Of a stretch of DNA of 64,000 nucleotides, positions 34,399 through 35,850 are shown in pieces. The notes under the pieces are model-generated. The model was not told where the DNA came from. It saw only the letters and a list, made by a program, of their open reading frames with translations, and did no database searches. The translations under genes were made by a program, and so were the position numbers. The stretch comes from Escherichia coli (GTDB lineage Bacteria > Pseudomonadota > Gammaproteobacteria > Enterobacterales > Enterobacteriaceae). How positions within the stretch are numbered: the stretch's first letter is position 1; each line of letters begins with the position of its first letter. The stretch lies in assembly GCF_024502345.1 (NCBI RefSeq), contig NZ_JALDNN010000001.1; one strand, 5' to 3'.

Positions 34399-34420
34399 GT
34401 GCAACGGCGGGGAGTGATCC

Positions 34421-35759
34421 CATAAGCGCTAACTTAAGGGTTGTGGTATTACGCCTGATATGATTTAACGTGCCGATGAATTACTCTCACGATAACTGGT
34501 CAGCAATTCTGGCCCATATTGGTAAGCCCGAAGAACTGGATACTTCGGCACGTAATGCCGGGGCTCTAACCCGCCGCCGCGAAATTCGTGATGCTGCAAC
34601 TCTGCTACGTCTGGGGCTGGCTTACGGCCCCGGGGGGATGTCATTACGTGAAGTCACTGCATGGGCTCAGCTCCATGACGTTGCAACATTATCTGACGTG
34701 GCTCTCCTGAAGCGGCTGCGGAATGCCGCCGACTGGTTTGGCATACTTGCCGCACAAACACTTGCTGTGCGCGCCGCAGTTACGGGTTGTACAAGCGGAA
34801 AGAGATTGCGTCTTGTCGATGGAACAGCAATCAGTGCGCCCGGGGGCGGCAGCGCTGAATGGCGACTACATATGGGATATGATCCTCATACCTGTCAGTT
34901 CACTGATTTTGAGCTAACCGACAGCAGAGACGCTGAACGGCTGGACCGATTTGCGCAAACGGCAGACGAGATACGCATTGCTGACCGGGGATTCGGTTCG
35001 CGTCCCGAATGTATCCGCTCACTTGCTTTTGGAGAAGCTGATTATATCGTCCGGGTTCACTGGCGAGGATTGCGCTGGTTAACTGCAGAAGGAATGCGCT
35101 TTGACATGATGGGTTTTCTGCGCGGGCTGGATTGCGGTAAGAACGGTGAAACCACTGTAATGATAGGCAATTCAGGTAATAAAAAAGCCGGAGCTCCCTT
35201 TCCGGCACGTCTCATTGCCGTATCACTTCCTCCCGAAAAAGCATTAATCAGTAAAACCCGACTGCTCAGCGAGAATCGTCGAAAAGGACGAGTAGTTCAG
35301 GCGGAAACGCTGGAAGCAGCGGGCCATGTGCTATTGCTAACATCATTACCGGAAGATGAATATTCAGCAGAGCAAGTGGCTGATTGTTACCGTCTGCGAT
35401 GGCAAATTGAACTGGCTTTTAAGCGGCTCAAAAGTTTGCTGCACCTGGATGCTTTGCGTGCAAAGGAACCTGAACTCGCGAAAGCGTGGATATTTGCTAA
35501 TCTACTCGCCGCATTTTTAATTGACGACATAATCCAGCCATCGCTGGATTTCCCCCCCAGAAGTGCCGGATCCGAAAAGAAGAACTAACTCGTTGTGGAG
35601 AATAACAAAAATGGTCATCTGGAGCTTACAGGTGGCCATTCGTGGGACAGTATCCCTGACAGCCTACAAAACGCAATTGAAGAACGCGAGGCATCGTCTT
35701 AACGAGGCACCGAGGCGTCGCATTCTTCAGATGGTTCAACCCTTAAGTTAGCGCTTATG
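34421..35759 (+). mobile_element. IS186 insertion sequence (1339 bp)
   Basis: Perfect 23-bp terminal inverted repeats CATAAGCGCTAACTTAAGGGTTG; flanked by a 10-bp direct repeat GGAGTGATCC (34411..34420 and 35760..35769). Confidence 0.95.
34476..35588 (+). CDS. insL: IS186 transposase (370 aa)
   Basis: Recognised as the IS186 transposase; track ORF starts two codons earlier (34470). Confidence 0.93.
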   Translation: MNYSHDNWSAILAHIGKPEELDTSARNAGALTRRREIRDAATLLRLGLAYGPGGMSLREVTAWAQLHDVATLSDVALLKRLRNAADWFGILAAQTLAVRAAVTGCTSGKRLRLVDGTAISAPGGGSAEWRLHMGYDPHTCQFTDFELTDSRDAERLDRFAQTADEIRIADRGFGSRPECIRSLAFGEADYIVRVHWRGLRWLTAEGMRFDMMGFLRGLDCGKNGETTVMIGNSGNKKAGAPFPARLIAVSLPPEKALISKTRLLSENRRKGRVVQAETLEAAGHVLLLTSLPEDEYSAEQVADCYRLRWQIELAFKRLKSLLHLDALRAKEPELAKAWIFANLLAAFLIDDIIQPSLDFPPRSAGSEKKN

Positions 35760-35850
35760 GGAGTGATCCCCGCCACTTTTCAGGTGCTCGCATATCTTCA
35801 ACGCACCCTAATTTTACCCAAGCCTGCCCACGGGCAGGCTTTTGGGGAGG

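Follow-up and report, generated by a model that had tools for sequence, protein, structure and literature searches.

The window analysed here is a stretch of 64,000 nucleotides of Escherichia coli DNA, of which positions 34100-36100 correspond to positions 15048-17048 of NC_009800 (E. coli HS), minus strand, with a 100% match. In this part of the window the type I toxin gene hokC is followed by a copy of the insertion sequence IS186 and then by dnaJ (Table 1). The small Hok toxin ORF has a sok antisense/hok leader region upstream of it, as is characteristic of a hok/sok locus. IS186 is a cut-and-paste element of the IS4 family that encodes a DDE transposase, and it is present in three places in the HS genome.

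Table 1 Features of the hokC-dnaJ interval, in window coordinates
Feature	Position	Strand	Remarks
hokC mRNA 5' leader and sokC antisense region	34096..34248	+	Rfam RF01794 (sok), 122 bits against a gathering score of 59, E = 7.7e-29
hokC type I toxin ORF, 50 codons	34246..34398	+	RefSeq CDS WP_000809168.1, named mokC there; stop codon 22 bp before the IS
5' arm GGCGGGG of the split GC-rich target hairpin	34406..34412	+	Partner CCCCGCC at 35768-35774
Left copy of the 10-bp target-site duplication, GGAGTGATCC	34411..34420		Uninterrupted sites in other genomes have one copy
IS186 (IS4 family)	34421..35759	+ (strand of the transposase gene)	1339 bp including both inverted repeats
Left terminal inverted repeat, 23 bp, CATAAGCGCTAACTTAAGGGTTG	34421..34443	+	Perfect complement of 35737-35759
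insL transposase gene, 370 aa from ATG	34476..35588	+	ORF list; open frame begins at GTG 34470
Right terminal inverted repeat, 23 bp	35737..35759	-	Perfect complement of 34421-34443
Right copy of the 10-bp target-site duplication, GGAGTGATCC	35760..35769		Uninterrupted sites in other genomes have one copy
3' arm CCCCGCC of the split target hairpin, followed by ACTTTTCAGG	35768..35774	+	Sequence and fold of the uninterrupted site
Predicted fold-back (fbi-like) element CUUCAACGCACCC	35796..35808	+	Fold of the reconstructed transcript; pairs with 34096-34107
dnaJ	35851..36981	-	Convergent with insL in the window; ORF list and RefSeq

When aligned in the same internal orientation, the element in the window is identical to IS186A of E. 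coli K-12 at 1338 of 1339 positions (compared with 332 of 1339 when it is reverse-complemented), so that a chance match is not at issue. The sole difference, at position 349 of the element, falls in the third base of transposase codon 98 and is synonymous. The two ends are perfectly complementary for exactly 23 bp and diverge beyond that point, and the product of insL matches the Pfam family DDE_Tnp_1 with E = 1.6e-26. RefSeq labels this protein in HS as an IS4-like element IS421 family transposase (WP_001300563.1), an entry that is common to the IS186 copies of HS, of E. coli B REL606, and of USML2, a strain identical to K-12 at this locus. The initial annotation had recognised an IS186 with perfect 23-bp terminal inverted repeats, and in its length, its near-identity to a known copy, its 23-bp repeats, its DDE transposase ORF, and its 10-bp duplication in a GC-rich target the element has all the features of IS186. 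With its ORF whole and its ends perfect the copy appears to be intact, which is consistent with transposition activity.

To define the target we turned to genomes in which the site is uninterrupted. In O111:H8 8B, UK_Dog, O157:H7 F8798, ST131 MB1159, and JP538 the site reads GGCGG[GGATCACTCC]CCGCC, with a single copy of the 10-mer. Because these genomes carry only one copy between GGCGG and CCGCC, the 10-bp direct repeat that the initial annotation had noted on either side of the element is a true target-site duplication, and the span of 34411-35769 assigned there correctly comprises the element together with both copies of the duplication. The target is a two-fold symmetric G4-N6-C4 sequence (GGCGGGG AGTGAT CCCCGCC) with the duplication centred on the symmetry axis; the GC-rich motif originally given as G4-N-C4 is therefore real and better written in this fuller form. 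The uninterrupted target is predicted to fold into an 8-bp GC stem with a 4-nt loop, 22 nt past the hokC stop codon, and the 76-nt stretch that holds this hairpin has a whole-stretch fold of -25 kcal/mol (z = -2.6). (Note that a simple terminator scan did not flag the hairpin, its T-tract being too short, so we refer to it as a GC hairpin and not as a proven terminator.) The duplication was exactly 10 bp long at every occupied hokC site that we inspected, in contrast to the title of Sengstag et al. 1986 (cited in PMC3562002), according to which IS186 can make variable-length duplications at one target.

The transposase gene in the window lies on the + strand and reads from hokC toward dnaJ, as first annotated; both the ORF (34470/34476-35588) and the RefSeq annotation agree. 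In K-12 MG1655, IS186A (insL1, b0016; 15387-16731) occupies the same target between dnaJ and hokC, with the same 10-bp duplication and the same 23-bp repeats as in HS. The order there is dnaJ(+) insL1(+) hokC(-), compared with hokC(+) insL(+) dnaJ(-) in the window; unlike in HS, the K-12 transposase gene thus runs from dnaJ to hokC. That K-12 insL1 is codirectional with dnaJ had been stated in the initial annotation, and the MG1655 annotation bears this out. Comparison with both MG1655 and E. coli B REL606, the latter having the K-12 orientation at the same target with the same duplication, likewise supports its claim that the window copy sits at the same target in the opposite orientation. 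With the flanks oriented as in the window, the K-12 junctions read GGCGGGGATCACTCC/CATAAG...CTTATG/GGATCACTCCCCGCC (slashes mark the ends of the element), which is the reverse complement of the window junctions. HS and K-12 share the target position and the 10-bp duplication exactly; what is reversed is solely the sequence enclosed by the 23-bp repeats. The flank haplotypes of the two strains differ, with SNPs from 21 bp outward of each end of the element and approximately 770 differences over 35 kb (about 2%). It was reasonable to suppose, as the initial annotation did, that the arrangement reflects an independent insertion or a rearrangement.

To place the window copy among other strains, we searched 5426 complete E. 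coli genomes. The HS orientation was found in about 935 of these genomes, at 80% or more coverage of a 2-kb query, and the K-12 orientation in about 790, and the site was uninterrupted in at least 2553 (a lower bound, as genomes with an ompK-sulfatase insert beside hokC fall under the coverage cut-off). The junctions were identical in 15 of 15 occupied genomes that we read directly (11 together with four from the K-12 clade), whichever the orientation, and these sites span at least six flank haplotypes that differ at up to 22 positions per 1965 bp. The HS-orientation loci sampled (HS, P276M, O6:H16, O19:H7, and O111:H8) form a tight haplotype family with 0-6 differences per 1965 bp, and the K-12-orientation loci sampled (K-12, REL606, ETEC1738, 2017.17.03CC, and FORC_031) lie on haplotypes that are 9-22 differences apart over the same length. 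The IS186 copies at the sampled sites vary in only four columns and differ pairwise at no more than two positions. With IS copies so similar and flanks that diverge from 21 bp outward, the insertions must be much younger than the haplotypes that carry them. (Four variable columns are too few for the donor copy to be traced among IS186 copies.) Moreover, two O111:H8 strains with identical flanks differ in that one has IS186 and the other does not, which shows recent turnover at the site. Among the complete genomes, none combines the exact HS haplotype with the K-12 orientation, the best match being 99.8%.

The relatives closest to K-12 are relevant to how the two orientations arose. A synthetic query of 5139 bp, consisting of the exact K-12 flanks (1800 + 2000 bp) and the reverse-complemented K-12 IS, found a full-length match of 100.0% in at least 17 natural isolates. 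The natural isolates 720632, NCTC9008, MB10, B-1109, and C10 have the HS orientation and differ from K-12 at only 3-10 positions in approximately 35 kb of flanking sequence, and they share with K-12 its IS1A insertion beside nhaR. (We considered whether C10, which is from a river, could represent contamination by K-12 whose IS had flipped and rejected this idea, as C10 has 5 SNPs and is without K-12's private allele at 7342.) K-12 alone in its clade has the K-12 orientation, at least five sequenced relatives, PF9285 among them, being of the HS type, and JP538 is the only genome that is uninterrupted on K-12-identical flanks. The tree of the approximately 35-kb flanks of this clade is a star in which almost all SNPs are private, a shape that accommodates an empty ancestor as readily as an occupied one. 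(In PF9285 the copy at the hokC site, at about 20800-21942, is 1142 bp long; it has a 197-bp internal deletion and is annotated with a frameshift and a stop.)

The two other IS186 copies of K-12, IS186B at hokE and IS186C at nupC, resemble the copy at hokC in that each lies in a hairpin just after a gene and has a target made up of a G-rich arm, a 10-bp GG-N6-CC duplication, and a C-rich arm. The targets, GCCGG[GGATAATTCC]CCGG after nupC and GCGG[GGAGTAATCC]CCGC after hokE, have the same symmetric geometry as the hokC site. Both sites are also polymorphic for the orientation of IS186 across E. coli, with their duplications unchanged. At nupC the arrangement inverted with respect to K-12 was found in 457 genomes at 80% or more query coverage, 15 of which, among the matches listed, were at 100.0% (including ATCC 8739, E. 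coli C, and ML35); the matches listed are natural strains and laboratory strains other than K-12. The K-12 arrangement at nupC was found in 473 genomes at 80% or more coverage, and the three full-length matches sampled were all K-12 derivatives. At hokE the two orientations occur in 1590 and 216 genomes, with K-12 in the majority; this site, unlike that at hokC, thus has one dominant orientation, and the K-12 copy there is codirectional with the hok gene, as the HS copy is at hokC. At hokC and nupC, and not at hokE, K-12 is therefore oriented opposite to natural strains whose flanks are identical to its own. No difference separates the three K-12 copies (100% identity). In the search with the K-12 arrangement we also saw IS186 directly beside several hok-family genes (hokD, hokE, and other Hok/Gef genes), on chromosomes and on one large plasmid, in matches that extend past the IS into the 3' region of the hok gene. 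IS186 thus seems to target the GC hairpin after hok genes in general.

We rebuilt the uninterrupted hokC transcript by joining the two flanks and computed its minimum-free-energy fold. The predicted closing helix joins the 5' end, GGGUGCUUGAGG, to the fold-back element, CUUCAACGCACCC, through 12 pairs with a one-base bulge. A shuffle control on the duplex energy of the 5' and 3' regions, which is a generic test, was not significant; purely as a prediction, the helix has the form of the pairing between 5' end and fold-back element of hok mRNAs. IS186 places 1349 bp between the predicted fold-back element and the body of the hokC mRNA. Hok loci inactivated by insertion sequences, with disruption of the fold-back element, are described in PMC3562002, PMC2654758, and PMC7232551, and the last two cite Pedersen and Gerdes 1999 for IS-inactivated chromosomal hok/sok loci in K-12. 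As in those published cases, the element in HS lies directly downstream of the hok frame and would split off the predicted 3' fold-back element. Unlike in the published K-12 case, to judge from the arrangement of the genes, read-through from hokC in HS would enter insL in the sense rather than the antisense direction.

The hokC locus also varies in other respects. In USML2 (3411-4851) and in P276M an IS150 lies approximately 100 bp upstream of the hokC ORF, in the sokC/hokC-leader region; its position and orientation are shared by the two strains, of which USML2 is K-12-identical and P276M has an HS-type haplotype. The equivalent spot in the window, at about 34075-34080, is unoccupied. Ten further natural isolates also have IS150 at the hokC locus, as judged from the genome search, and in several genomes IS150 adjoins IS186 at hokE. 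This pattern suggests a second IS hot spot at the hokC locus. In ETEC1738, O19:H7 730V1, and ST131 MB1159 the interval between hokC and the place that nhaA takes in HS and K-12 holds two genes, one for an ompK-like outer membrane protein and one for a sulfatase; in the window this corresponds to a point just upstream of hokC (about 33700-34000), so that gene content varies beside hokC. The dnaJ gene of the O111:H8 strains is 15 bp shorter (1116 compared with 1131 nt) as a result of an in-frame deletion, presumably in the glycine-rich repeat region.

Taken together, these findings make it probable that the HS copy goes back to an ordinary insertion into a symmetric hot spot, separate from the insertions in K-12 and B. 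We envisage that IS186 would insert into its preferred GC-rich G4-N6-C4 hairpin, 22 bp after the hokC stop codon, with cuts staggered by 10 bp and placed symmetrically in GGCGG/GGAGTGATCC/CCGCC (slashes mark the cuts), which would produce the 10-bp duplication. As the target is two-fold symmetric, the transposase complex could dock either way round, and separate insertions of either orientation would be expected to share both position and duplication. On this account the HS copy, in which insL is codirectional with hokC, and the K-12 and B copies, in which it is codirectional with dnaJ, would be separate and fairly recent insertions. The effect on the host would be alike in both orientations, in that the hairpin would be split and the predicted 3' fold-back element parted from the hokC mRNA; such a split is the reason given in the literature for regarding hokC as inactive in K-12. 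Two kinds of observation speak for repeated recent insertion with the same 10-bp stagger, namely near-identical IS copies on diverged flanks, and the presence and absence of the element on identical flanks; the symmetry of the target in turn leads one to expect both orientations, and the divergence of the HS and K-12 flanks, set against the one-base difference between their IS copies, favours separate recent insertions. There is a precedent in the lon promoter, where, according to PMC3045373 (which cites SaiSree et al. 2001), one and the same position receives spontaneous IS186 insertions in either orientation. As at lon, where insertions are found in E. coli B and in spontaneous K-12 mutants, one GC-rich position at hokC appears to have been struck repeatedly and either way round. 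The lon hot spot differs in its location and in its consequence, which is the loss of lon expression, and the insertions at lon were seen to arise in the laboratory, whereas those at hokC are deduced from natural variation. Note that if IS186 copies undergo gene conversion, an insertion may not show its true age.

The independence of the events is, in our estimation, weakened by the relatives in the K-12 clade that have the HS orientation, because an occupied ancestor of that clade would need either a flip or an excision followed by re-insertion. For K-12 itself there are accordingly two readings: either its lineage filled empty hot spots at hokC and nupC on its own, a reading that fits because its three IS186 copies are 100% identical, or IS186 flipped in place. 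In the latter case there would have been one inherited insertion whose 1293-bp interior was inverted later, by recombination or replication template switching between the 23-bp repeats or by a transposase-mediated event, with the duplication and the junctions unchanged. Consistent with this, the two states differ in the interior alone and share repeats, duplication, and flanks; at least 17 natural isolates equal the K-12 flanks with a reversed IS at 100.0% over 5139 bp, isolates that stand 3-10 differences per 35 kb from K-12 on a star-like tree in which one genome with K-12-identical flanks is uninterrupted; and the nupC site has the same pattern. However, repeats of 23 bp lie at the lower length limit for homologous recombination, frequent flips should have mixed the HS-type haplotype family, in which five of five occupied members sampled share one orientation, and the exact HS haplotype is without a K-12-orientation twin (best match 99.8%). 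Recurrent insertion would moreover be needed in any case to put near-identical IS copies on diverged haplotypes, the identity of the three K-12 copies fits recent transposition in the K-12 lineage from one copy into empty hot spots, and, as between HS and K-12, flanks that are about 2% apart make a shared ancestral insertion unlikely. Inversion in place is, to our knowledge, not a recognised behaviour of IS4-family elements, and we found no report of IS186 flipping in place in the literature searched. We consider it unlikely that the HS and K-12 arrangements are related in this way, and we are equally doubtful that the K-12 copies at hokC and nupC are flipped forms of the arrangement in its closest natural relatives, with the orientation at hokC, nupC, and hokE switching within a lineage. 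A programmed invertible switch of the fim/Hin type would call for a dedicated site-specific recombinase that acts on the flanking inverted repeats; the DDE transposase is encoded by the only ORF of more than 102 aa in the element, and no tyrosine or serine recombinase gene is annotated adjacent to it.

Much less likely still is that the element was lost precisely, by slippage between the 10-bp duplications, and that the restored hot spot was then struck again in the other orientation. JP538, uninterrupted on K-12-identical flanks within an otherwise occupied clade, and the O111:H8 strains that differ in the presence of the IS on identical flanks are what such a sequence of events would leave behind, but it involves two rare events rather than one, and the uninterrupted genomes may equally be ancestral, in which case the present data look the same as under plain independent insertion. 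We also considered an artefact of assembly, since IS186 is multicopy (three places in HS) with identical 23-bp ends and its orientation might have been mis-assigned in the HS assembly. We rejected this idea and regard its probability as negligible: a junction-crossing read need only exceed about 40 bp to fix the orientation, and four separate HS records (NC_009800 and three others), some 930 other complete genomes, and the RefSeq annotation all agree.

The element, its preference for such targets, the site beside hokC, and insertion in both orientations at a hot spot were all previously known, and the HS copy is annotated in RefSeq; as a known IS in a known hot spot of a commensal strain that had already been sequenced, that copy in itself matters little. 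In the literature searched we came upon no published account of the hokC site being polymorphic for orientation, and we regard this polymorphism as a minor extension of known biology. With about one-third of complete E. coli genomes occupied and the two orientations roughly even, the hokC site illustrates how a strongly site-specific IS repeatedly strikes a symmetric hairpin, and it might offer an inexpensive marker of lineage. That K-12 differs in orientation from near-identical natural relatives at two of the three sites where it has IS186 would matter more if it were due to inversion in place. If such flipping were to occur, the neighbouring transcript that reads insL in the sense direction would change with it, being either that of hokC or that of the dnaK-dnaJ heat-shock operon.
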